Positions 1-63,650 of a stretch of DNA of 64,000 nucleotides are shown one piece after another. A model generated the notes under the pieces. The model had not been told where the DNA came from, searched no databases, and saw only the letters and a list, made by a program, of their open reading frames with translations. A program made the position numbers and the translations under genes. The stretch covers positions 128,001 through 192,000 of the forward strand of contig JAIBBX010000001.1 in assembly GCA_019694475.1 (NCBI GenBank), read 5' to 3'. The number at the start of each line of letters is the position of its first letter. Position 1 is the first letter of the stretch. Source of the stretch: Parachlamydiales bacterium. GTDB lineage: Bacteria > Chlamydiota > Chlamydiia > Chlamydiales > SM23-39.

Positions 1-342
1 TCTGCTGATCGCAGCTTGCACATCGGTTGTCGCTTCGTCAATATTGCGGTTGAGATTGAATTGCAAAATGATGGTCGATGAGCCATTATTGCTGGTCGAA
101 AAAATGCTTTGGATCCCTTCAATGGTCATGAACTGCTGTTCAAGAGGCGTTGTCACGGAATTGGCCATCGTATCGGGGCTGGCCCCCGGGTAGCTTGCAG
201 AAACTTCAATCGTCGGCATATCGACATTCGGCAAATCGCTCACCGGCATCATTTCATACGCCGCAAACCCAAAGAATAAAATCGAGATCATCACGAGAAG
301 GGTCATCACAGGACGGCGGATGAAAGGTTCTGACAAGTTCAT
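1..342 (-). CDS. RND (AcrB/HAE1-type) efflux permease, N-terminal fragment; the gene continues past the window start
   Basis: My minus-strand translation from the ATG at 342..340 reads MNLSEPFIRRPVMTLLVMISILFFGFAAYEMMPVSDLPNVDMPTIEVSASYPGA. This is the canonical N-terminus and TM1 of AcrB-family pumps. It has an ATGA overlap with the stop of the adaptor gene and is not in the ORF track because it is truncated. Confidence 0.85.
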   Translation of the reverse strand, partial: MNLSEPFIRRPVMTLLVMISILFFGFAAYEMMPVSDLPNVDMPTIEVSASYPGASPDTMANSVTTPLEQQFMTIEGIQSIFSTSNNGSSTIILQFNLNRNIDEATTDVQAAISR

Positions 343-1406
343 TTAATCTCTATTTTTGCCCCGGAATAAAGGTTGAGCTGCCCTTCAACGACAATCCGTT
401 CTCCCGCTTCAACACCTTTTAAAACGATCACATTATCATCTTCCCTTTGGCCTAACGTGATCGGTCTTTGCTCTACCGTCATATTTTCTTTCACCATGAA
501 AAGAACAGGGCCGTTTTGGGTCATTTGAACAGCTGTGTAGGGGATGATGACCGCATCCTGAAGGGTTGTTAAAATCAATCGGGTGCGGATGAACTGTCCT
601 GGCCAAAGTTCTTTCTGGCAATTTTCAAAAATGGCTCTCAGCGTAATCATGCCGGTATTTGGATCGACGCTGTTATCGAGCATGAATAATTTGCCCTCAA
701 AGACCTCTTCGGAAAAATCTTCATATGCGGCAAGCACTTTGAGTTCGCCTTTGGAAAAGTATTTTTGCACTTGAGGCAATTTGAATTCGGGGATGGAAAA
801 GGTGACATAGATCGGACGCATTTGATTGAGAGTGCTCAAAGTGGCGCCATTGTCTGCGACCAGATTTCCATAGTCGACCTGCAAAAGCCCCATCATTCCG
901 TCGATCGGCGCATAGATCCAGCAGTAGTTGAGGTTGATGAGCGCGCTATCCACTTGGGCCCGATTCTGCTCGACAAGAGCGGCAGCAGAGGCGAAATTGG
1001 CTTGGAGTGTCTCATAATCGATTTGGGAATAGTATTCGCTTTTTGCCAAGGTGCGGTACCGTTTCACCTTTTCTTCAGCAAGAGCAAGGTTGGCTAAGTT
1101 TTCTTCTAGGGTAGCTTGCGCCTCTTTCAGCGCTGCTTGATAAGGTCTTGGATCGATGGTGAAAAGGAGATCGCCTTTTTTGACTTCTTGGCCTTGCGCG
1201 AAATAGACGCCGGTCAGTTCCCCTTCAATGCGCGATTTGATGTTGATTCGGGTGATCGAATCGACGTGTCCGAGCGCCTCTATATAAATGGGTGCTGGTT
1301 TTTCCTCTGCCATGCCAATCCTAACAGGATATGTTGGAACAACTACCTTTGTTTCTTTCTTGTGGCATGCGCTCAAGATCAAACAAATCAGAAGAAGCTT
1401 TTTCAT
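339..1406 (-). CDS. Efflux RND periplasmic adaptor (HlyD/AcrA-family membrane fusion protein)
   Basis: 355-aa ORF with a lipoprotein-type signal (MKKLLLICLILSAC). It has the lipoyl/hairpin/beta-barrel layout of MFPs. It lies between the OMF and RND genes with 4-nt overlaps on both sides. Confidence 0.85.
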   Translation of the reverse strand: MKKLLLICLILSACHKKETKVVVPTYPVRIGMAEEKPAPIYIEALGHVDSITRINIKSRIEGELTGVYFAQGQEVKKGDLLFTIDPRPYQAALKEAQATLEENLANLALAEEKVKRYRTLAKSEYYSQIDYETLQANFASAAALVEQNRAQVDSALINLNYCWIYAPIDGMMGLLQVDYGNLVADNGATLSTLNQMRPIYVTFSIPEFKLPQVQKYFSKGELKVLAAYEDFSEEVFEGKLFMLDNSVDPNTGMITLRAIFENCQKELWPGQFIRTRLILTTLQDAVIIPYTAVQMTQNGPVLFMVKENMTVEQRPITLGQREDDNVIVLKGVEAGERIVVEGQLNLYSGAKIEIK

Positions 1407-2887
1407 TGAGCCTCCTCGTTAGGGGTTGCGCAAAGAGATCCTGTGGCATAGGCGATTTCAGCAAGGCTTAAAAACCAATTTTTTTGCGCCTCAGCCTTTT
1501 TTGTCCTTGCATCAGCGAGTGAACTTTGGGCTTGCAGGACATCCAAGATGGTGTTGGTGCCCGCTTTGTAGCTCGTGATTGCGATATCGAACTGTAACTC
1601 GGCTGCCTTCAAATACTCTTCCGTGTCAGTCAAGTTGGAAGCCGATGTTTTTACGCTCATATATGCGTTGGTGACGTTTTGGATCAGCGTCAATTCTGTT
1701 TGCATGAGCTGCGCCTTGGCTAGCTCGACATTCGCTTCGGCGTTACGCACTCCATTGCGGTAGTAATAGCCATTAAAGAGAGGGAATGAGAGGGTCAGCG
1801 TTGCTGTCCAATGGTTTTCAGGTTCAACGAGTCCGCCATTGAACCAGTATCTCCCTGTGCTCATTTGCGTCCCCAAAACGGGCATCACGGCCCTTTTTGC
1901 CTGCAAAAGCGATGCTTCTTTGGATCTAAGATTCGATTGAGCGGCTAAAAAATCTTGCCTTTGCTCTTGCGCCATTGCGACAAGCGAATCGAGGTTTTCC
2001 ATCAAAGTGCCAGCAAGAATTTTTTCAGGGAGGGGCTGTACTTTGAATGGGATGTTTGCGGGCAGGCCTAAATCAACCGCCAACTGGCAAAAAGCATTTT
2101 CGACATTTTGTTTTTGCGTATTGAGGTTGATGCGGCTTTGCAGGAACTGAGTGCGGGCTTGCGCAACATCGCCGAGCGCAGCAAGGCCGAGGGCGAATTT
2201 TTCATTGGCGGCATCGAGCGACATTTCAGCGTTTTCCAGATTGGCTTTATCGGATCTTTCCAGTGAGATTTGATACAAGTAATTGTAATAATCGGTCATG
2301 ACCGTTTGTAGAACGGTCTGGATATTCTGGTTGTGATTTAAATCGGCATAATAGAGCGATTCTCTAGCGGCGACGGCGGCTGCGGTTCGCTGGCCAAAAT
2401 CAAAGAGAGTGTAACTCAAAACAACATCGGGGCCTGCTTCTGAGAAATAGCTCTCTTGTACGACGTTGCCAACACCCGTTAATCCTACAGAAATGGTTGT
2501 GGGCGATCCTGGGGTGGCTGTTGGAACTCCAGTTGTTGGAAAACCTGCTTTTTGCCGGAAGAAAAAGCTGCTGAACTGCACGTTGGGATAGAACGAACTG
2601 AGGCTTTGGCCATATTCGGCGGCTGCGGCGCGAGCTTGCGCCCAGGTTTGTTTGGTTGCCGGGTTATTTTGCAAAGCGATGTCGAGCAGTTCAGCGAGCG
2701 ACATTTCATTTGTGTTGAAATCGGGAGGGAGCATCGTCTGGCAGTATTTGGATGAAACCAAATTATTGCCTTTCATAGGTGTCCAAGTAGAGTAGGGGGT
2801 CGATGGGGCAAGATCAAACGGCGCGCGCGCATCATGGATGCAGCCGGATAGAACTAGAGACAGAACGGCAAATCGCTTAAACCCCAT
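1403..2887 (-). CDS. Outer membrane efflux protein (TolC/OprM family)
   Basis: 494 aa with a lipoprotein signal (LSLVLSGC). It shows the internally duplicated helical/coiled-coil pattern typical of OMFs. It is the first gene of the efflux operon. Confidence 0.8.
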   Translation of the reverse strand: MGFKRFAVLSLVLSGCIHDARAPFDLAPSTPYSTWTPMKGNNLVSSKYCQTMLPPDFNTNEMSLAELLDIALQNNPATKQTWAQARAAAAEYGQSLSSFYPNVQFSSFFFRQKAGFPTTGVPTATPGSPTTISVGLTGVGNVVQESYFSEAGPDVVLSYTLFDFGQRTAAAVAARESLYYADLNHNQNIQTVLQTVMTDYYNYLYQISLERSDKANLENAEMSLDAANEKFALGLAALGDVAQARTQFLQSRINLNTQKQNVENAFCQLAVDLGLPANIPFKVQPLPEKILAGTLMENLDSLVAMAQEQRQDFLAAQSNLRSKEASLLQAKRAVMPVLGTQMSTGRYWFNGGLVEPENHWTATLTLSFPLFNGYYYRNGVRNAEANVELAKAQLMQTELTLIQNVTNAYMSVKTSASNLTDTEEYLKAAELQFDIAITSYKAGTNTILDVLQAQSSLADARTKKAEAQKNWFLSLAEIAYATGSLCATPNEEAQ

Positions 2888-54216: not shown

Positions 54217-54630
54217 TTAGTCTTGTCTCAGATGATTAATGTCAGGAGAAATTGAAAAATCGCAAATAGCTTTGCCGTGGGCGCATGCTGCTTGGAATTC
54301 AGCTGCACCTGCGCTGCCCATGCTATGCCAATGATTGATCTCGTTAATATTGGTAGCTTGTGCAGAGTAATCTTTGACTAATTGGCTTAAATCTTGTCTT
54401 GCTTGCTGTGGATTGGTTCTAGAACTCGCTTCTTGATACAACTCACTGTAAACAGTGTGCTCATCTTGCTCGAGCTTTTGAATTGCTGCTAAATCTTTAG
54501 AGTATTGAGCAGGATCGGTGTCATTTTCTAGACGGCCGACTAAAGCTTTGATTTGCGAGTTATCTGAAGAGAATTCATTTAATAATTGAGCCCAAGAAGG
54601 TTGAGGGCAAATTGAATCAATCGATGACAT
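54217..54630 (-). CDS. Hypothetical protein
   Basis: The ATG at 54630 gives MSSIDSICPQPSW. No family was recognised. It is divergent from tpsA. Confidence 0.5.
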   Translation of the reverse strand: MSSIDSICPQPSWAQLLNEFSSDNSQIKALVGRLENDTDPAQYSKDLAAIQKLEQDEHTVYSELYQEASSRTNPQQARQDLSQLVKDYSAQATNINEINHWHSMGSAGAAEFQAACAHGKAICDFSISPDINHLRQD

Positions 54631-54782
54631 TTTTTTTATCCTTTTTATTATTTTGTACAACAAAATTTATTATATACAATATCTGTTAAGATTTTATAAA
54701 GATTGTGGTTATTGGGATTTTTTTCCAGCGCAAACCTATCCCAGAAATTTTTTCTTGAGTTTGTAAGTAAAAAAATTAGAGA

Positions 54783-57700
54783 ATGACAGCCATGTCTCGT
54801 TTTCTAACTCTTTCGTTTGCTCTTGCAAGCAATATCATATTTGCACATCCCGAAAATCCTCAGGTTCGTGCAGGGCAAGCTTCATTTGTACAGAATGAGC
54901 ATCTACTAGAAATCTTTGCGTCTGATAATGCAATCATTGGATGGAAAGATTTTTCGATTCAGTCTCATGAAACCGCACGGTTTGTTCTTCCTAGTCAATC
55001 CGCCAAAGTATTGAATCGGGTCATCGGCAAAATTCCGAGCTCGATTCAGGGAGCCTTAGAATCCAACGGACAAATTTTTCTTCTCAATCCCAACGGCGTT
55101 CTGATTGGAAAAGATGCCAAAATTAAGACAGCCGGTTTCTTTGTAACCACTTTTGAGCTTGCGGACGAAGATTTTTTAAGCGGCGGCTATTTTCAATTAG
55201 ATCCTGAGAATGGAATGGGGATCGAAAACCTAGGCCGGATCGAAGCGTTGGATGGAGAAATCTTTCTCATTGCAAAAACAGTGGAAAATCAAGGGTCCAT
55301 TATTGGGAAAAATGTGACCGTCGCAGCTGGGGGCGAATGGATCATTCAAAACCTAGATCCTAAAAGGCCGAAAATTAAAACATCAAAACAGCTATCTGAT
55401 TCCGAAGCTCTTAATCCATATGCTGCTGCAATTAGGCATAGCGGAGCGATCGAAGCGATCGGCTACGCGGAAAAAGATGGAAATATCTTCCTCATATCAG
55501 AAAATGAGATCGAACTCTTTGACCATGCAAATTTGACTAGTTTGAATGGAGGGGAGATTCGAGCGCTCGGGAAAAATATCTGCGTCGAAGAAAAAGTACA
55601 AATTGAAAGCAGCAGCGATGCTGGTGGAAAAATTGTCTTGGTCAGCGAAGGGGCGATGCAATTTTTGGGAACTGCCGTTGCTGAAGGGAAAGAGCTCGAT
55701 GGCGGGTTTGTTGAGATCTCTGGAAGTCCAATCCATTTTCACGGAATAGTTTCTACCTATTCTCAAAAGGGAAAAACAGGAACTCTTCTTCTTGATCCCT
55801 TAGATATTATGATCTCGACAGCCGCCGATTTTGCTGTAACGACTTTGCCAGGACCGATTTTTGAACCCACTGATCCTCTTTGCATGTCGAACTTGAGCAC
55901 CGCAACGCTGACCGGAGCATTAGCATCCAATAACGTCACTGTGAAAACTACTGGAACCGCAGGGGCATGCCTTGGCGACATCATTGTTAAAAGCCCATTT
56001 ACTTGGTCCTCTGCCAATTCTTTGACTTTCGACGCAGCGCACGATCTGATTGTGCAAGAACAAGTATATGCGACAGGGAAAGGGGCGATCATTGCGACAG
56101 TTGGCAATGCTGTTTCAATCAATCCAGGAGCAGGAGCAGGTCCTGCAGAACTGCGAACCACTCAAGGCGCCATTTCTTTAACTGCTGCTGCAAATGACAT
56201 TGTGGTTACAGGAGGGACTTTACCTTCAGCTTCCTCTGGAATTTTCAGCGACAGCGGAACGATCACTCTCTCGCCTCACATCAATTTGACTGTAATGGGA
56301 GGTCCTGGTGTAGGAGCTTATGCAGAAATTTCATCGCGAGCTGGCCCGATAAATGGCAGCATCGGCGCAGGAGGGGTGCTTACAGTTCAAGGGGGCGGAC
56401 CGAATGCATATGCACAGATCGGGGTGGGGACTGCCTCAACGGGTATAAATGTCTCCAGCACAATCACCTTCACATTTGATGTGAATGCAGGAGATTTAGA
56501 TGTACTTGGCGGCACATTCAGCGGTGCTTATGCTCAGATTGGACATGCTCCCCATCCAGCAGGGAATAATACAACAGTTGCAGGATCCATCATTTTCAAT
56601 CCTCCCAATTTAGGAGTTGGCAATAACATCAACGTAACTGGTGGAGGCATTCAATCTACAGCCATCATTGGGCATGGCAATGAACTGTCTGGGAATATCG
56701 CAACAGCATCAGGTGATTTTCAGATCTACGCTCAAGGAGCGATCACAGTTCAAGGCGGAACGATCGGAAGTCAGTCTCATGCAGTCATTGGCTTTCATAC
56801 ACCTGAGGGGGGGCCTTCTGGAAGTTATTCAGCGACTTCAAATCTTCTGGATGTAAGGACTTTGATTTCAGGAGATATTCTCATTAACGGCGGGACTGGA
56901 AGCAATGGCGTCATCGGCTACTATAACAATTCGTCATTAACTCCTCTTGCTAGCGTCGATATTAAGTCGATCAACATTGTGCCTACCGATTCGAACGTTG
57001 TCACTTTAACAGCAGGAAAATTGAATGCAACTCCTCACGGAGCTGCGGTTCTTGGAACAATGGATCTTCTAGGCAGCGCAAATTCCAATATCACGATTGT
57101 GAGCGGCGGTCTTTCTGTGTTAGGACCGCAGCTTGGAGCCAATGATGGGGCTGCTCGCTTAATCAATGGAAGACCGAACGTAAACGCAGGCAGAAGTATT
57201 TTGATCGACTGCGCTTCAACGCCTTTGATTGCAAGCATCGCAGTCTTAGGTGGAATCGGGCTAAGCCCTGGATTCGCAGAGATCTATTCCAGCGGAACTC
57301 TCAATATGCAGCTGTTCGGCCATCTCTATGTCAATCGCTCTTTGACAGTTGTCCCCATTTTGCAAAACGGTCCAGCTCAAATTGTCAGCTATGGAGCCAC
57401 GACCGTCAACGGTTCTTTCCCCTGTATGGATGTAGTTGTCTTGGGGGGAACCAATACAGGAATCAATTATAGGGGATCGGCTCTCTTCCAATCTATCTCT
57501 TCTACCATCAATGTAGGAACCGCTTTTAGCGCGGGCGCAATCGGTTTAACAGTTGGATATGTTTTTTCTGAAGCCCCCTCTCAAATTTTAACCTCGTCCG
57601 GGACCAGCGTCATTTCATATACCGGAGTCGGTGTTTTACAAGGAGGCCAGGCGAATCTAAATGCTCCTCATGCATCTGCTGAGATCCGCAGCGATTTGGG

Positions 57701-60700
57701 TAATTTACAATTGACAAACGGAATGTCTTTATCTCTGACTGGAGGGACTGGACTTCTCTGTTTTGCTGAAATCTCTTCAACAATGGGAAATGTCCTCATC
57801 AACAATATATCGGGTCCGATTACTCTATCGGGCGGAACTACCATTGGCGGCATCAATGCCTATGCGCAGATTGGTAGAGGGATCGGGATCAATACGCCTC
57901 AGGTGATGAGCAGCATCACTTTTGATAATATCGGCGCCGTATCTCTAACGGCATTTGATGGTCCTGGGGCCTATGTGCAAATCGGCCAATCTCCAACCGA
58001 TCCGGTTGCCCTCTCTACTGTCGTAGGGGATGTTATTTTCAATTCCGGGGCTGCAAATCTATTGCTTCAAGGAGGCTCTGCAATCACAAATACGGCGATC
58101 ATCGGACACGGCAACGAATTGACGCCAAGGCTTTTCAATGTATCTGGTTCTATTAATGTTATTGTGAATGCGGCAGGAACCTCTTCGCTTTTTGCAAGCC
58201 CAACGGTTGGACAGGCTCACGCGATCATTGGGTTTTGCAATCCGAAAGCAGGCTCAGCCGCCTCATTCAATGTAAACTCTGGATCTGTCTCTTTGCTCAG
58301 TAGGGGAAACACGCATCTCAAGGCTGGAGTTTTTGGCAGCAATGCAATCATTGGCTATTACAATGGGGTAAATCCTCAACTCACACCCGTTAATTTGACA
58401 ATCCAAAACGTCACAATGGATGGAAACAACGGGGCTGTCAACGTGTTGCTAGAAGCTGGTAATGATCCGGGGACTGGTGCAGTCGGAGAGGCTCCCGTCG
58501 GAATTGCAGCGATAGGAACGCTTGTGAATAGCGGAGGTTCATTTGCCTATAGCAATGTAACTGTGACTGCTTCTACGCTCACACTTCTTGGACCTACTGC
58601 AGGCAATAACGGATCGGCTCGGATTGTTAACAGCCATCCGAATACCGCAAATCCCGTATTCAATATAGCGATTCAACCAACCACCAACATCAATGTCCTT
58701 GGCGGGGTCGGATTGCCAAATGGATTTGCAGATATATATTCTACTAACAACCTGTCTATCCAATATTTTGGAAATTTTTATATCAATGAGGCTTTCCCCG
58801 TCTTTCAAAATGGATATGCCCATGTTGTCGCCAGTCAAAATGTCGAGATCAACACAACGGCTTTTGGCACAGATATGAGGCTCACAGGGGGCAATAGCAA
58901 TATGGCATCAGGGGGAAGCGCAGATGCGCTCATTCAAGCCTTGAATGGCCATTGCTTTGTTGGCAATTTTTCTCCCGCAACCAACAATATCTACATTGGA
59001 AGGACAGGCAGTGAATCGCCCTCAAAAATAGAGGCTTTTCAAGATCAAATAGCGGTTGGAGCATCTCTTGACATCATTTTGCAAGGCGGAAAAGCCAATT
59101 TAGGACCTCCTCAAGCGACTGCCCAAATCCGAAACTTGAATGGCGCTATTAATATAACCGCTGGACAGAATCTAACTTTGAATGGCGGGACCGGACCTTT
59201 AACTTTTGCTCAGATTGGCAGTTTCCATGGCAATGTGACTGTTTCACAAGTAGGAAAAGACCTAACCCTAAATGGAGGGAGCGGACTTCAAGCTTATGCT
59301 CAAATCGGAATCGGGTACGATTTGACTCAGGCGATCATCAATAGTTCCATCACCTTCTTCTTTGTCGGCGGCAAAATGATTTTAAATGGCGCTATAGCTG
59401 GCGATTCAGGATATGCGCAGATAGGTCATTCTCCATTTGGCGCGATGCTCTTTTATAGCGCAACAGGCGATGTTCTCTTTCCAACATTTGGTTCGATTGG
59501 ACTCGGACAACTCAATGGAGGCTCAGTCAATAACTCCACCGCGATCATTGGTCATGGAAATCCTTTGAGCAGCAACCTCAATATAGCGAGCGGAAGCATC
59601 ACAGCAGGCTCTTCAGACTTAGCAGGGCTTACTCTAAATGCGGGAACTGGTTCAGAAAGTCACGCCGTCATTGGATATTTTAATCCAGTGGGGGGCTCAA
59701 CTCCTTCATTCACCGTGCAATCGAACCAAATTTCGGTAAATACGCTTCAAGGTCCGATTACTCTCAATGCAAACGCTGCTATGAATGCAACAATCGGGTA
59801 CTATCACCCAGCAGCATCTGCCACTCCGATCAGTGTCCAAGTGGGGAATATCTCGATGCAAACTGGAACTGGTTTGCCCCCTCTTTTTTCAAATTTCATC
59901 AATTTGAACGCTGATACGGGATTTCCAAACGGAATTGCCTCAATCGGCACCTTCGGTCCTACGGGATCAACGACAAGATCGGGAATCAGGATTCAAGCAG
60001 TCGAATTAAATTTAAATGGCCCTCCAGCTGGAAAAGATGGAGCTGCTCGAGTGATCAACAATCAACCATTTATTTGTTCGTTTGATCTTGTTCAGATCTC
60101 AGCCCTGAATATCAATGTAATTGGCGGACTGGGAACTGGTTTTTCAGATATCTATTCATCCAATCAGATGACCCTTTCTTTCAATGGAACACTCAATGTT
60201 AATTTAAACCCTGCGGCTCCTGCAGTTTTACAAAACGGAAACGCAACAATCACCTCTTGTAAAGACTTAAATATAACCGCTTACGGCACGCCGCCGAACA
60301 ATCTGGGAAATATTTTCATCTTAGGCGGATCGAATCCTGCAGTCCAATCCCAAATCGTTTCGAACACAGGGAATGTGAATGTGGGCAATTATCTGATGGA
60401 TATGCAAGGCGCAAAGCAAATCAATATCGGAAGAGCCGATATGATGGGGCCCGCTCGAATGACAGCGGCGCAAGGAAACATCAACTTGGTCACCTCAGGT
60501 TCTGTAAATATCTCTGGGGGAGCGGCTGCAGGCGCAGATGCTGATCTTACCGCTTTTGGAAGCTTGATAGGAACTGTGGGCGGCGATTTCGACGTAACCG
60601 GAGGCGTATTTGGAAATGCAACGGCAGTTGCTGGAAATGGACCGATCAATCTAGTTTCACGCGGGTCAGTCAATCTGATTGCCCAAGGAGCAACTACCGC

Positions 60701-61451
60701 TTCGATTGTCGAGCTAGGTTTGAACAACGATAGTGTTACGATCGAAGCTGTGAATAATCTGAATATGGGTCTGAATACATTCATTCAAAATCAAGGTAGC
60801 GGAAATATGGTTCTTAACGCAGGAGCCGATGCTGTTTTGATGAATAATGCGTACATTCAAAATTTGATGAACGGATCGCTCAATTTCTTCACAGGCATCT
60901 CCATGTATTTGCTCAACCAATCGCAAATTTTGTCGAATGGCGGCTCTGTGTCGCTAGTGGTCGACAACCTGTTTCCAACAGAAGCGATTGGTATAGGCAA
61001 TGGCGCTTTTCTTATGGATGGTGGAGCTGTCGTTAACTCGAATGGCGGGCTAACAAGAATTTTTACAGCTCGTAGGCCCTTGAATCGAATCGAGGGAGTG
61101 ATCAATGGACAGATTTTTGTCCCGGGACCCGAATTCGTCAATAGTAATGAGGAGATCTGGGGCGTTTATTATTTTTCCGCTCTTGGAGGAAATCCATTCA
61201 CAGTCTTTTATAAAGAGATTGTACCAATCCCTGTTGTTCCTGCGATCAACAATCTGGTCACTCGCAGTAATAATGAATTCTACTATGATTTGAGATCTTT
61301 TGATGATTTCATTTTTACCGCCATTCCAATCAATGTCTATTACGACTCCAAATATTTCGCCGAAGAAACGCTTGATTACAGATCCCTACGCAGGTTCTAT
61401 CGAGATTATCATCTGCTGCATATTGATACTTTAGGAGAGGGAGATGAATAG
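54783..61451 (+). CDS. Two-partner-secretion exoprotein (TpsA; filamentous-hemagglutinin-like, 2222 aa)
   Basis: It has a signal peptide (MSRFLTLSFALASNIIFA). The N-terminal TPS/hemagglutination-activity domain reads ...IIGWKDFSIQSHETARFVLPSQSAKVLNRVIG...IQGALESNGQIFLLNPNGVLIG. The remainder is long, Gly/Asn/Thr-rich and beta-helix-like. It is followed by and overlaps a TpsB gene. Confidence 0.85.
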   Translation: MTAMSRFLTLSFALASNIIFAHPENPQVRAGQASFVQNEHLLEIFASDNAIIGWKDFSIQSHETARFVLPSQSAKVLNRVIGKIPSSIQGALESNGQIFLLNPNGVLIGKDAKIKTAGFFVTTFELADEDFLSGGYFQLDPENGMGIENLGRIEALDGEIFLIAKTVENQGSIIGKNVTVAAGGEWIIQNLDPKRPKIKTSKQLSDSEALNPYAAAIRHSGAIEAIGYAEKDGNIFLISENEIELFDHANLTSLNGGEIRALGKNICVEEKVQIESSSDAGGKIVLVSEGAMQFLGTAVAEGKELDGGFVEISGSPIHFHGIVSTYSQKGKTGTLLLDPLDIMISTAADFAVTTLPGPIFEPTDPLCMSNLSTATLTGALASNNVTVKTTGTAGACLGDIIVKSPFTWSSANSLTFDAAHDLIVQEQVYATGKGAIIATVGNAVSINPGAGAGPAELRTTQGAISLTAAANDIVVTGGTLPSASSGIFSDSGTITLSPHINLTVMGGPGVGAYAEISSRAGPINGSIGAGGVLTVQGGGPNAYAQIGVGTASTGINVSSTITFTFDVNAGDLDVLGGTFSGAYAQIGHAPHPAGNNTTVAGSIIFNPPNLGVGNNINVTGGGIQSTAIIGHGNELSGNIATASGDFQIYAQGAITVQGGTIGSQSHAVIGFHTPEGGPSGSYSATSNLLDVRTLISGDILINGGTGSNGVIGYYNNSSLTPLASVDIKSINIVPTDSNVVTLTAGKLNATPHGAAVLGTMDLLGSANSNITIVSGGLSVLGPQLGANDGAARLINGRPNVNAGRSILIDCASTPLIASIAVLGGIGLSPGFAEIYSSGTLNMQLFGHLYVNRSLTVVPILQNGPAQIVSYGATTVNGSFPCMDVVVLGGTNTGINYRGSALFQSISSTINVGTAFSAGAIGLTVGYVFSEAPSQILTSSGTSVISYTGVGVLQGGQANLNAPHASAEIRSDLGNLQLTNGMSLSLTGGTGLLCFAEISSTMGNVLINNISGPITLSGGTTIGGINAYAQIGRGIGINTPQVMSSITFDNIGAVSLTAFDGPGAYVQIGQSPTDPVALSTVVGDVIFNSGAANLLLQGGSAITNTAIIGHGNELTPRLFNVSGSINVIVNAAGTSSLFASPTVGQAHAIIGFCNPKAGSAASFNVNSGSVSLLSRGNTHLKAGVFGSNAIIGYYNGVNPQLTPVNLTIQNVTMDGNNGAVNVLLEAGNDPGTGAVGEAPVGIAAIGTLVNSGGSFAYSNVTVTASTLTLLGPTAGNNGSARIVNSHPNTANPVFNIAIQPTTNINVLGGVGLPNGFADIYSTNNLSIQYFGNFYINEAFPVFQNGYAHVVASQNVEINTTAFGTDMRLTGGNSNMASGGSADALIQALNGHCFVGNFSPATNNIYIGRTGSESPSKIEAFQDQIAVGASLDIILQGGKANLGPPQATAQIRNLNGAINITAGQNLTLNGGTGPLTFAQIGSFHGNVTVSQVGKDLTLNGGSGLQAYAQIGIGYDLTQAIINSSITFFFVGGKMILNGAIAGDSGYAQIGHSPFGAMLFYSATGDVLFPTFGSIGLGQLNGGSVNNSTAIIGHGNPLSSNLNIASGSITAGSSDLAGLTLNAGTGSESHAVIGYFNPVGGSTPSFTVQSNQISVNTLQGPITLNANAAMNATIGYYHPAASATPISVQVGNISMQTGTGLPPLFSNFINLNADTGFPNGIASIGTFGPTGSTTRSGIRIQAVELNLNGPPAGKDGAARVINNQPFICSFDLVQISALNINVIGGLGTGFSDIYSSNQMTLSFNGTLNVNLNPAAPAVLQNGNATITSCKDLNITAYGTPPNNLGNIFILGGSNPAVQSQIVSNTGNVNVGNYLMDMQGAKQINIGRADMMGPARMTAAQGNINLVTSGSVNISGGAAAGADADLTAFGSLIGTVGGDFDVTGGVFGNATAVAGNGPINLVSRGSVNLIAQGATTASIVELGLNNDSVTIEAVNNLNMGLNTFIQNQGSGNMVLNAGADAVLMNNAYIQNLMNGSLNFFTGISMYLLNQSQILSNGGSVSLVVDNLFPTEAIGIGNGAFLMDGGAVVNSNGGLTRIFTARRPLNRIEGVINGQIFVPGPEFVNSNEEIWGVYYFSALGGNPFTVFYKEIVPIPVVPAINNLVTRSNNEFYYDLRSFDDFIFTAIPINVYYDSKYFAEETLDYRSLRRFYRDYHLLHIDTLGEGDE
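56232..60452 (+). repeat. Three tandem ~1.44-kb (~480-aa) diverged super-repeats within tpsA
   Basis: The ordered motif ladder recurs three times. The first motif ((F/Y)A(E/Q)I) begins at 56314, 57759 and 59201. Repeat starts are approximately 56232, 57672 and 59115, with a partial fourth start near 60453. Confidence 0.8.
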
Positions 61452-63048
61452 GAGAATTATTACTTCTCTTCTTTTTGTATTCGCATTGGAAGCTGCTCAA
61501 CTGAAATCGATTGTTTTGCTAGGTCCAGATTGTCAAACGCATCGGCTAATACCAACTTCCTGTGTCGCCACCAAAGGCTTCGAATTTCCGAAATTGACAA
61601 GAGAACTTGAAGCGAATATTGCCTGGGGTACCGAGATTGATCGCGAGCTCGTTCTAGAGATTCGTAAAGAGATCATCCGCACATTTAGAAGACTTGGCAG
61701 ACCCATAGTGATAGTTGAAATTCCGCCTCAAAGCCTTGCTAGCGGAGTCATACACTATCAAGTGATTCAAGGGCTGCTTGGAGAAATTCGCGCGTCAGGA
61801 AGTTGTTGGTATAGCAATCGGCTTTTTGAAAGGTCGATCCATTTAACGCCAGGTTGTCCGATCGATGAATACCAACTGCTGAATGATGTAGCTCTTTTAA
61901 ACCGAAGCCCTTTCCATCGGACCGATGTCGTTTACACTCCAAGCGAAGTTCAAGGCTATACAAATGTTGAACTGATCACCAGAGATCGGTTTCCTCTTCG
62001 AGTTTATGTGGGGGGAGACAACACCGGAACACGCCAAATCGACCGTCTTCGATTTTTTACGGGATTTGATTGTGGATATGCCTTTGGATTGGACCAAACG
62101 TTTTCCTATCAATACACAGCATCTCCCAATTTTTCGGAATTTCAGTCTCACACCTTCCATTACTTTGGGGCTCTGCCATGGGGCCATGTTTTTTTATTGT
62201 TTGGCGGATTTGCTACTGTGAAACCTCCGGATAGCAGTTTTACTCACTCGGAGGGCAAAAGCGGACAGGCGAGTATTCGATATGAAATTCCCATTCAATC
62301 TCTTTTTGAGGGCTGGCTCCATGAGCTTCAGTTGGGTTTCGATGGAAAATCGACGAATAATAACCTGATTTTCCTCGGATCAGGAGAGCCTGCGATTTTA
62401 CAAAATACTGCGAACCTTTCCCAGTTTGTTTTGGGATATGATATTGGCTGGAAAAATCTAGCCCATATTTTCAGTCTTAATGTTCTTTTCTTTTATTCAC
62501 CTGGCCGGATGCTCGCGAATGAAGAAGATGAGGACCTTGCAGTCTTTCGCGCAGGGGCAAAAAATCAATATTTATACGGTAAGGCAGCTCTGAGTTACGA
62601 ATATACCTATTCGGAAGTCTTCGGCATCTGGTTTCAAGGGAGATTTCAGAAAAGTTCTAGACCTCTTCTAGCGTCCGAACAGATTTCTATTGGAGGATAT
62701 GACACAGTTAGAGGTTTTGATGAAAGGCTCTATAATGGGGATAATGGGGTGATCGGGAATTTTGAATTCCAATCTCCAGAATACGCGATCATCGGAAACT
62801 TTAAGCCTCGTTGCAAAGATCGATTTATGGGACTTTGGTTTTTTGATTGCGGGTTTGCTGAACTCATGGAAAAAGTCATAGGAGAACCAAGAAGAGCTTT
62901 TCTAGCGTCTACAGGTCCAGCTGTTCATTATCGAATTGGAGATTGGTTTTCCGCCCGCGCCGCTTATGGTTTTAAGCTGCACAATGTAAAAAGCCTGGGC
63001 GATAGCTCGCTGGGCAAGCTCCATGCAGGACTCATTATTAGCTATTAG
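61444..63048 (+). CDS. TpsB outer-membrane transporter (ShlB/FhaC/HecB family; POTRA plus 16-strand barrel)
   Basis: It has a signal peptide, a POTRA-like sequence VIHYQVIQGLLGEIRASG, and the conserved L6 motif GGYDTVRGF. It has the C-terminal alternating-strand pattern. It overlaps the tpsA stop by 8 nt. Confidence 0.85.
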   Translation: MNRRIITSLLFVFALEAAQLKSIVLLGPDCQTHRLIPTSCVATKGFEFPKLTRELEANIAWGTEIDRELVLEIRKEIIRTFRRLGRPIVIVEIPPQSLASGVIHYQVIQGLLGEIRASGSCWYSNRLFERSIHLTPGCPIDEYQLLNDVALLNRSPFHRTDVVYTPSEVQGYTNVELITRDRFPLRVYVGGDNTGTRQIDRLRFFTGFDCGYAFGLDQTFSYQYTASPNFSEFQSHTFHYFGALPWGHVFLLFGGFATVKPPDSSFTHSEGKSGQASIRYEIPIQSLFEGWLHELQLGFDGKSTNNNLIFLGSGEPAILQNTANLSQFVLGYDIGWKNLAHIFSLNVLFFYSPGRMLANEEDEDLAVFRAGAKNQYLYGKAALSYEYTYSEVFGIWFQGRFQKSSRPLLASEQISIGGYDTVRGFDERLYNGDNGVIGNFEFQSPEYAIIGNFKPRCKDRFMGLWFFDCGFAELMEKVIGEPRRAFLASTGPAVHYRIGDWFSARAAYGFKLHNVKSLGDSSLGKLHAGLIISY

Positions 63049-63481
63049 GCGGATATAGAGATAAAAAGAGTCTGATTTGGCCGATAAGGCCATTTTTGGA
63101 ATTGAATGTGCCAAGAATTTCCATACAGTAGATGATATTGGCTGTCCCGTCGTTATCCTTATTACAAGAAGTTTGATATAAGGACTCTGTGCAGTAGGGT
63201 TGCGGGACGGTTAGAAAGTTCAAAATGCTCTGGCATGATGGGCTGTTATATGCACTGGGATCTTCCGTTTTTAACAGATTCAAATCATTCACCACTATCT
63301 GAATCCATTGCATCATCGGAAAAATAATGATCGAATTTTCCAATCCTTCTTGCTGATATGAAAGAGCCTGTACAAATAATGGGAGCAGCATTTCTCCCAT
63401 ATCGTATTCAATTTGAGCTAAAATGGGATTGCTTTGCGCACCCGCCGCTCCTGAAATTGGATTGATTTCTTCTGTTATCAT
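63038..63481 (-). CDS. Hypothetical protein
   Basis: 147-aa ORF. Its 3' end overlaps the tpsB 3' end by 11 nt. No family was recognised. Confidence 0.45.
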   Translation of the reverse strand: MITEEINPISGAAGAQSNPILAQIEYDMGEMLLPLFVQALSYQQEGLENSIIIFPMMQWIQIVVNDLNLLKTEDPSAYNSPSCQSILNFLTVPQPYCTESLYQTSCNKDNDGTANIIYCMEILGTFNSKNGLIGQIRLFLSLYPPNS

Positions 63482-63564
63482 CTTATCTTTATTTTATTTC
63501 TATTTCATTAATATGTCAAAATCATATTATACGCAAAACAAATTATCCTGTTAAAATATTTTTA

Positions 63565-63593
63565 TTGACGAGTCAATGGTTATTTTATATAAT
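63565..63593 (+). promoter_or_regulatory. Near-consensus sigma-70-type promoter TTGACG-17 nt-TATAAT
   Basis: TTGACG is at 63565..63570 and TATAAT at 63588..63593, with a spacer of exactly 17 nt. It lies about 58 nt upstream of the ATG at 63651. The -35 element is embedded in the palindrome TTGAC-GA-GTCAA. Confidence 0.55.
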
Positions 63594-63650
63594 TAGAAAT
63601 GAGTCGGAAGACTAATATAAACAAACAAAAATAATAAAAGGGTTAAAACA

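Follow-up and report, generated by a model that had tools for sequence, protein, structure and literature searches.

Known Two-Partner Secretion Systems and the Chlamydial Locus

The logic of type Vb secretion, or two-partner secretion (TPS), is known from FhaB/FhaC of Bordetella and HMW1A/HMW1B of Haemophilus influenzae, in which an exoprotein (TpsA) is paired with a separate transporter (TpsB). The extreme C-terminus of HMW1 acts as a surface tether. The Pmp adhesins known from work on Chlamydia pathogens belong to another class, the type Va autotransporters. In this work, we analyzed a tpsA-tpsB gene pair in a 64,000-nt stretch of DNA from an uncultured Chlamydiales bacterium (contig JAIBBX010000001.1, positions 128,001 to 192,000; hereafter the window). 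The tpsA ORF (open reading frame; 54783..61451, + strand) encodes a 2222-aa exoprotein with a predicted signal peptide, a TPS domain, a putative beta-solenoid passenger, and a conserved C-terminal domain, and the tpsB ORF (61444..63048, + strand) encodes a 534-aa Omp85/FhaC-type transporter. With a probability of roughly 0.8, we consider this locus to be a real and intact type Vb secretion operon that is functional and vertically inherited in its chlamydial host.

Among the described systems, HMW1A/HMW1B and EtpA/EtpB of enterotoxigenic Escherichia coli gave the best matches to the TPS domain (PDB entries 2odl and 8cpk). The window locus resembles them in having a TPS domain of the single-NPNG subtype, a large passenger that is predicted to be all-beta, and an adjacent tpsB gene, but the sequence similarity ends at approximately aa 314 of the window TpsA. 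Unlike HMW1 and EtpA, the window passenger contains three 480-aa modules with the motifs AQIG, IIGHGN, IGYYN, and DIYSS and without a matching Pfam family. Its C-terminal domain bears no relation to that of HMW1 and was found here only in chlamydial genomes.

FhaB/FhaC and CdiA/CdiB follow the same secretion logic. A profile of the window's TpsB family aligns to residues 80-519 of FhaC and to CdiB, and the L6 VRG[FY] and F.D.G motifs are common to FhaC, CdiB, and the window TpsB. In contrast to FhaB and CdiA, the window TpsA has no Fil_haemagg repeats, VENN/pretoxin region, accompanying immunity gene, or similarity to an FhaB-like prodomain. The gene order in the window's clade, tpsA then tpsB, also differs from that of FhaB/FhaC and CdiA/CdiB.

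Within the Chlamydiota, a 'huxA/huxB-like' TPS operon is mentioned in one sentence for Rhabdochlamydia helvetica (PMC6490308), so TPS systems in this phylum are already on record; no other account of a chlamydial TPS or hemagglutinin family was found in the literature. This operon and the TpsA proteins of several metagenome-assembled genomes (MAGs) belong to the same phylum and the same type of system as the window locus. In Rhabdochlamydia sp. (locus L055), a TpsA with the TPS and C-terminal domains is followed by tpsB, and NGX29879.1 (Anoxychlamydiales) also contains both domains. The TpsA proteins of these chlamydial relatives are much shorter (~800-1700 aa) than the window TpsA and lack the three 480-aa modules. 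Automated annotation has labeled those from MAGs as, for example, "filamentous hemagglutinin family protein" or "Heme/hemopexin-binding protein." The Pmp proteins offer a different kind of likeness, as large beta-helical surface proteins of chlamydiae that form paralog families and have a plausibly analogous adhesin role. However, the beta-domain is fused to the passenger in Pmp proteins, whereas the window system has a separate transporter. There is no sequence relationship between the two, and no Pfam match to the Chlam_PMP repeat or the autotransporter domain was found in TpsA.

The TPS Domain, the Transporter, and the Operon

The N-terminus of TpsA (MTAMSRFLTLSFALASNIIFA, followed by HPE) is hydrophobic and Sec-signal-like on inspection of the translation. 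The predicted signal peptide covers aa 1-21 (54783..54845, +), and its cleavage site between IFA and HP is provisional because it was placed by inspection. The TPS secretion domain (aa 44-314; 54912..55724, +) matches PF05860 (TPS) at aa 48-233 with an E-value of 6.8e-28 (98.7 bits vs a cutoff of 33.5) and TIGR01901 (adhes_NPXG) with an E-value of 2.1e-19 (69.2 bits vs a cutoff of 29.1). The sequence LLNPNGVLIG (aa 99-108) holds the only NPNG-type motif in TpsA (aa 102-105), and a second motif of the NPNL type was not found. When compared with PDB sequences, the domain matched HMW1 (2odl, 1.3e-22, aa 44-314), EtpA (8cpk, 9.7e-22), and HxuA (4i84, 9.3e-12), and no structure of the FHA, HpmA, or ShlA type was among the matches at E<=0.1.

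TpsB matches PF03865 (ShlB) with an E-value of 1.9e-16 (60.9 bits vs a cutoff of 22.7). Both the TPS and the ShlB profile matches are strong and are not chance similarities, which bears out the original prediction of a type Vb locus in the order tpsA to tpsB. Regular-expression searches located the loop L6 motif GGYDTVRGF (aa 417-425, with VRGF at aa 422; 62692..62718, +) and the barrel motif FFDCG, of the form F.D.G (aa 466-470; 62839..62853, +). Residues G417, G418, R423, and G424 do not vary among 16 chlamydial TpsB sequences, nor do F466 and D468 in the TpsB family alignment. The best single-sequence PDB match of TpsB was CdiB (6wim, 1.8e-7, aa 93-436). A profile of the 16 chlamydial sequences matched CdiB at 7.5e-17 and FhaC (4qky) at 1e-12; the latter alignment (chain residues 80-519) spans the POTRA domains and the barrel, and CdiB residues 75-225 are also covered. 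All 16 sequences match ShlB and 13 of them match POTRA_2. A POTRA region in the window TpsB is predicted solely through this family profile. The exact TpsB protein has no database record.

The two genes are co-oriented and overlap by 8 nt, with a Shine-Dalgarno-like sequence, GGAGAGGGAG, immediately 5' of the tpsB ATG. In the window ORF list, tpsB is the only same-strand ORF 3' of tpsA. Both genes lie exactly where the original prediction had placed them, and the putative signal peptide, the TPS domain with LLNPNGVLIG, the overlap, and GGYDTVRGF are present as it described.

A Passenger of Three Ancient Modules

Between the TPS and C-terminal domains, TpsA contains three modules at aa 441-918 (56103..57536, +), aa 919-1400 (57537..58982, +), and aa 1401-1890 (58983..60452, +). 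These were located through the motif IIGHGN, which recurs at aa 628, 1106, and 1588 with a spacing of ~480 aa, and were then confirmed by segment-versus-segment blastp. Module 1 is 36% identical to modules 2 and 3 (E-values of 9e-53 and 1.5e-46), and modules 2 and 3 are 39% identical to each other (2.5e-62). A self-BLAST of the full-length TpsA listed no internal repeats. The modules have in common the motif series AYAQIG, TAIIGHGN, HAVIGF, IGYYN, GAARxIN, and FxDIYSS. Orthologous modules in other genomes are 39-55% identical to module 2, compared with 33-39% among paralogous modules, so the modules were triplicated before these lineages separated.

An AlphaFold2 model of module 2, based on a 21-sequence alignment, is all-beta with a mean pLDDT of 86.6 and a pTM of 0.90. 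In a Foldseek search of the PDB, the model had weak matches to beta-solenoids, namely, IgA1 protease, RTX blocks, Ag43, pertactin, EtpA, and HxuA (best E-value 0.44, TM-score <=0.24). Because none of these is significant, the term beta-solenoid is based on the secondary-structure pattern together with the weak matches. We infer from the models that the passenger may form a long all-beta solenoid of three ancient ~480-aa modules.

A Pfam scan of module 2 at E<=10 returned no match, and TPS is the only Pfam match in the 2222-aa TpsA, which has no Fil_haemagg or Fil_haemagg_2 repeats. Among the profile searches suggested alongside the original prediction, TPS and ShlB thus scored above their cutoffs and Fil_haemagg gave no match. 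Homolog and Pfam searches found no similarity of the passenger outside the chlamydial family.

A C-Terminal Domain Shared by a Chlamydial TpsA Family

The core of the C-terminal domain (aa 2028-2147; 60864..61223, +) is common to many shorter TpsA proteins that lack the modules and has the consensus LVVDN.FP..P.IG.G.F...LRIFTAR..N.I.G.ING..F.PG...E.W..YY...GG.PFT.FYK. It is followed by an aromatic and basic tail (aa 2148-2222; 61224..61448, +) ending RRFYRDYHLLHIDTL... An ending of the type RR.YRNYH.K.ID.L is repeated in the orthologs and in some shorter family members. In the AlphaFold2 model, the core is all-beta (pLDDT 83-95), and the tail is helical with low confidence (pLDDT <50). The tail is also the region least conserved relative to the closest ortholog (69-73% identity). 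In distant orthologs, the core is the best conserved part (48-55% identity vs 32-45% for the modules), a pattern more readily explained by a constant partner, be it the transporter, the envelope, or a conserved feature of the host, than by a variable receptor. The C-terminal 333 aa of TpsA have no Pfam match at E<=10, and a PDB sequence search with a profile of the domain gave chance-level matches only (E>=0.1).

In an exhaustive hidden Markov model search of 1.84 billion cluster representatives (clustered at 50% identity), the domain was found in 800 representatives at E<=1e-3, 725 at E<=1e-10, and 329 at E<=1e-30. The window TpsA is the first sequence of the profile used (A1), against which its orthologs score 1e-49. 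In every full-length protein among the 150 listed, some as long as 3829 aa, the domain lies at the extreme C-terminus. Among the TpsA homologs, only P0002-P0009 cover the modules, and dozens of shorter proteins (1260-2080 aa) match the TPS domain together with the final ~200-330 residues. When one genome per GTDB species was scanned with a motif built on seven sequences, 61 loci with this domain were confirmed. The lineages named in their records include Rhabdochlamydiaceae, Ca. Sacchlamyda, Rhabdochlamydia sp., Simkaniaceae/Simkania, Anoxychlamydiales, Parachlamydiales, Ca. Algichlamydia, and Ca. Acheromyda. Every record that names a lineage is chlamydial except one, "Verrucomicrobia bacterium SZAS-17," and the rest are labeled "uncultured bacterium." The family defined by this domain has so far been seen, apparently, only in Chlamydiota.

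Across 63 loci, the ORF with the C-terminal domain nearly always also carries a TPS domain and ranges from ~620 to >3500 aa. Of these loci, 41 have a neighboring tpsB gene, in either order: tpsA precedes tpsB in the window's clade, and tpsB precedes tpsA in many loci of Anoxychlamydiales and Simkaniaceae. The region between the two domains varies from about 0 to >2500 residues. This architecture indicates that the family keeps its TPS and C-terminal domains constant, with a variable spacer between them. We found no account of the C-terminal domain, its restriction to Chlamydiota, the paralog expansions, or the 480-aa modules in the searchable literature. The constant C-terminal domain is thus both a defined experimental target and a family missing from Pfam/InterPro. 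For annotation, the heme/hemopexin-binding labels of relatives derive from the generic TPS domain alone.

Several genomes carry many copies. The MAG CAZXVU01 has at least 12 loci, which include L024, L029, L034, L035, L040, L043, L045, L052, L057, L060, and L062, and the MAGs JANPFC01 and CAYPZU01 have six each. A second gene with a TPS domain (positions 1-549 of L065) lies ~9 kb upstream of the locus orthologous to that of the window. In a long-contig MAG labeled "Chlamydiales bacterium" (L010:2094-10615), a module-bearing ortholog is broken up among at least six ORFs that lie in different frames, as either a decaying pseudogene or the result of assembly indel errors.

Synteny, Selection, and Composition

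The full gene order around the locus is hydrolase, NTT, HIT, FA_desaturase, SelR, a 533-aa ORF, CSD, a small ORF, tpsA, tpsB, and a convergent ~140-aa ORF. As far as each contig extends, the same order is seen in L064, L065, L001/L003, and L008, in which TpsA is 87-88, 52, 39, and 36% identical to the window protein, respectively. The full-length TpsA orthologs have 88, 52, 39, 38, and 36% identity. The original prediction implied that a TPS system would be a novelty in the Chlamydiota. With 61 loci in the motif scan and orthologous syntenic loci being routine in close relatives, this premise fails. Surprise at a chlamydial TPS system is justified only relative to the Chlamydiaceae; the locus is ordinary for its lineage, and environmental chlamydiae commonly have TPS systems at conserved positions.

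The chlamydial context that had been proposed for the window is confirmed by a TLC/NTT transporter gene (491.8 bits), gatA and gatB, and a gene for a Pkinase+FGE-sulfatase fusion. The named relatives of the window GatB at 72-86% identity are all MAGs labeled as Chlamydiales, Chlamydiota, or Chlamydiia bacterium save for one Verrucomicrobia record. The locus L008 (JAFEGL010000064.1, "Verrucomicrobia bacterium SZAS-17") is syntenic with the window around tpsAB, and its 97,535-bp contig also encodes a GatB that is 74% identical to the window GatB. For these two reasons, L008 appears to be chlamydial and mislabeled; at least one MAG annotated as Verrucomicrobia is thus a chlamydial genome.

Relative to the ortholog in L064, the ratio of nonsynonymous to synonymous substitution rates (dN/dS) is ~0.06 for TpsA, ~0.04 for the modules, and 0.13 for the TPS domain, similar to the 0.04-0.14 of neighboring housekeeping genes, although these values are rough because dS is saturated (>1). 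TpsA is under strong purifying selection relative to its closest ortholog, and rapid diversifying selection was rejected for this pair. The GC content of the locus (0.457) is close to that of the window (0.460), and the distances of tpsA and tpsB in relative synonymous codon usage (RSCU) are within the spread of the window genes. No integrase, transposase, or mobile-element domain was found among the flanking ORFs scanned. The composition thus gives no strong sign of recent horizontal transfer. Of the compositional comparison proposed with the original prediction, GC and codon usage favor a native locus, and the GC content at third codon positions (GC3) is low by ~2 standard deviations (SD). 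Synteny, selection, and composition together lead us to regard the system as native, as old within the phylum, and as intact and constrained.

Over window positions 47504..63481, the flanking genes and the tpsA-tpsB block differ in their pattern of similarity. Identity to the window is mostly higher in the flanks of L001 than in those of L065 (87 vs 82% for NTT, 74 vs 67% for FA_desaturase, and 83 vs 59% for the 533-aa ORF), and the relation is reversed for TpsA (39 vs 52%), TpsB (50 vs 57%), and the convergent 147-aa ORF (28 vs 47%). This incongruence suggests allelic exchange or a rate shift of the block within the chlamydial gene pool.

Possible Role and Alternative Explanations

By analogy with FhaB/FhaC and HMW1/HMW1B, TpsA would be exported by Sec, its HMW1/EtpA/HxuA-type TPS domain would dock on the periplasmic POTRA domains of TpsB, and the chain would be threaded through the 16-strand barrel. 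Outside the cell, the passenger would fold into a long all-beta solenoid whose three modules act as a spacer stalk. The C-terminal domain could then be either a retention or anchoring element or a constant functional tip. The C-terminal tether of HMW1 serves as a model for the former, and we favor anchoring or retention tentatively, as a possible role.

TpsA may be a surface-displayed or released adhesin or host-contact fiber of the extracellular chlamydial stage, a proposal to which we give even odds. Adhesion is the most likely role because TpsA has the TPS subtype of two adhesins, HMW1 and EtpA, its passenger appears to be a repetitive all-beta stalk, the family is paralog-expanded like the Pmp proteins, and obligate intracellular bacteria need to attach to host cells. 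The original prediction fixed no function for the passenger, and this caution was sound.

Several observations weigh against our reading of the locus and its product. The window TpsB has no Pfam POTRA or POTRA_2 match, even at a maximum E-value of 10. GC3 is 0.41 in tpsA and 0.38 in tpsB, ~2 SD below that of 33 other window genes (0.49 +/- 0.05), and the dN/dS estimates suffer from the saturation noted above. Neither the model of module 2 nor that of the C-terminal domain has a significant Foldseek neighbor in the PDB. A glycosyltransferase gene of the HMW1C/EtpC type was not found at the locus, where the neighbors are CSD, the 148-aa and 147-aa ORFs, NTT, HIT, FA_desaturase, and SelR. Finally, secretion, surface location, and the role of the C-terminal domain are proposed by analogy, and the adhesin role purely so.

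Other functions can be envisaged for a large TpsA. In a contact-dependent inhibition (CDI) or polymorphic toxin system of the CdiBAI type, the TpsA C-terminus would be a toxin directed against competing bacteria. A TpsA of this size, with its TPS domain and separate C-terminal region, would suit such a system, as would the best single-sequence PDB match of TpsB being CdiB, and some chlamydiae are known to have polymorphic toxin domains (PMC3482391). However, TpsA has neither a VENN motif nor a Pfam toxin or pretoxin domain. The gene order is tpsA-tpsB with no small same-strand ORF 3' of tpsA, and the C-terminal domain is conserved over ~800 clusters rather than polymorphic, with a model that resembles a beta-solenoid-like cap rather than an enzyme fold. 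Chlamydiae are obligate intracellular bacteria, which makes killing among bacteria less plausible as well. We therefore rejected this reading, to which we assign next to no probability, for want of a VENN motif and an immunity gene and in view of the conserved C-terminus; the original prediction had likewise held that this is not a classical CDI locus. A cytolysin of the ShlA/HpmA type, or another membrane-active exoprotein that lyses, e.g., the host vacuole or cell, would agree with the need of chlamydiae for entry and exit functions, with the similar size of TPS-secreted cytolysins, and with the name of the TpsB Pfam family, which comes from ShlB. This explanation is improbable when set against the TPS domain, which matches HMW1, EtpA, and HxuA but no HpmA-, ShlA-, or FHA-type structure at E<=0.1 and has NPNG alone with no second NPNL-type motif, and against a passenger with no similarity outside the chlamydial family. 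The match to HxuA raises the further alternative of heme or hemopexin acquisition as in HxuA/HxuB, in line with the annotation of P0025 (Anoxychlamydiales) as "Heme/hemopexin-binding protein" and the "low similarity to huxA/huxB" given for a relative (PMC6490308). Yet the similarity is limited to the generic TPS domain (aa 47-192 of 2222), and no TonB-dependent receptor equivalent to HxuC was found among the window neighbors scanned or the syntenic-locus calls. The MAGs that contain family members are environmental and very diverse, and hemopexin is absent from many of the hosts of environmental chlamydiae; this function is scarcely probable.

The remaining alternative concerns origin, namely, that the locus is an island acquired recently by horizontal transfer and bounded by AT-rich DNA. 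The intergenic regions on either side have a GC content of 0.25 (54664-54782) and 0.21 (63482-63650) compared with 0.46 for the window, so the AT-rich flanks that had been predicted are real. The low GC3, the small ORFs without Pfam matches on both sides, and the similarity of tpsA, tpsB, and the 147-aa ORF that is incongruent with the flanking genes could also be taken as signs of an island. Nevertheless, the same neighborhood is present in at least four other chlamydial contigs at 36-88% TpsA identity, and the C-terminal domain of the family occurs only in genomes that are chlamydial, unlabeled, or mislabeled. In addition, neither overall GC nor RSCU distance falls outside the range of the window genes, no tRNA was found in the window, and no integrase or transposase domain was found in the flanking ORFs scanned. 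The incongruence speaks for exchange or rate shifts inside the chlamydial gene pool rather than for a foreign donor. Because the GC of the locus is near that of the window and its codon usage is within the range of the window genes, the AT-rich borders are ordinary promoter or intergenic DNA rather than island boundaries. A foreign island is very improbable and was rejected on synteny and composition.

Environmental chlamydiae have very diverse hosts, including amoebae, arthropods, algae, and fish. The TPS family at this locus is large, conserved, under purifying selection, and uncharacterized in the literature found, and we see in it a concrete candidate for the machinery with which these bacteria contact host surfaces. 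There is a minority chance that the family is a major and mechanistically distinct adhesin system of environmental chlamydiae. More speculatively, and in our judgment unlikely, the family might be the main adhesin or host-contact repertoire of chlamydiae outside the Chlamydiaceae, a type Vb counterpart of Pmp, with the C-terminal domain as an undescribed device that retains or activates TPS cargo and with the block incongruence reflecting host-driven allelic exchange.

Regulatory Signals and Neighboring Genes

Consensus scans gave a candidate sigma-70-like promoter (54624..54651, +; 10 of 12 matches) upstream of tpsA, in or at the edge of the AT-rich intergenic region 54664-54782, and a candidate terminator-like hairpin with a weak 5-bp stem (63078..63092, +) 30 nt past the tpsB stop codon. 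These sites are positional candidates only because the counts of promoter-like and terminator-like sites were not above the shuffled expectation. The Rfam and tRNA scans of the window were both empty.

Among the small neighboring genes, the 147-aa ORF (63038..63481, -) is convergent with tpsB, overlaps its 3' end by 11 nt, and is a conserved neighbor. It has no Pfam match, and homologs are in the same position in L001 (28% identity, E-value 2e-10) and L065 (47% identity). Its divergence follows that of TpsA and TpsB, not that of the upstream housekeeping flank, and an association with tpsAB is possible. The 148-aa ORF (54217..54663, -) between the CSD gene and tpsA, also without a Pfam match, has a 70-72% identical counterpart in L064. 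None was detected in L001 or L065, which have other small ORFs in its place; the slot just upstream of tpsA is one of fast turnover. The 533-aa ORF (52299..53900, -) has no Pfam match and has 59-83% identical counterparts at every syntenic chlamydial locus, making it a lineage-specific gene.

Farther from tpsAB, a 430-aa ORF with weak matches to IucA_IucC and FhuF, and thus siderophore-synthetase-like (39046..40338, +), adjoins a gene for a Y-family DNA polymerase with IMS, IMS_C, and DUF4113 domains (40339..41556, -). Furthermore, a gene for an HlyD-type membrane-fusion protein lies beside one for a TolC-like OEP outer-membrane factor (339..2887, -) and adjoins gatB/gatA; these two genes encode components of efflux or type I secretion.

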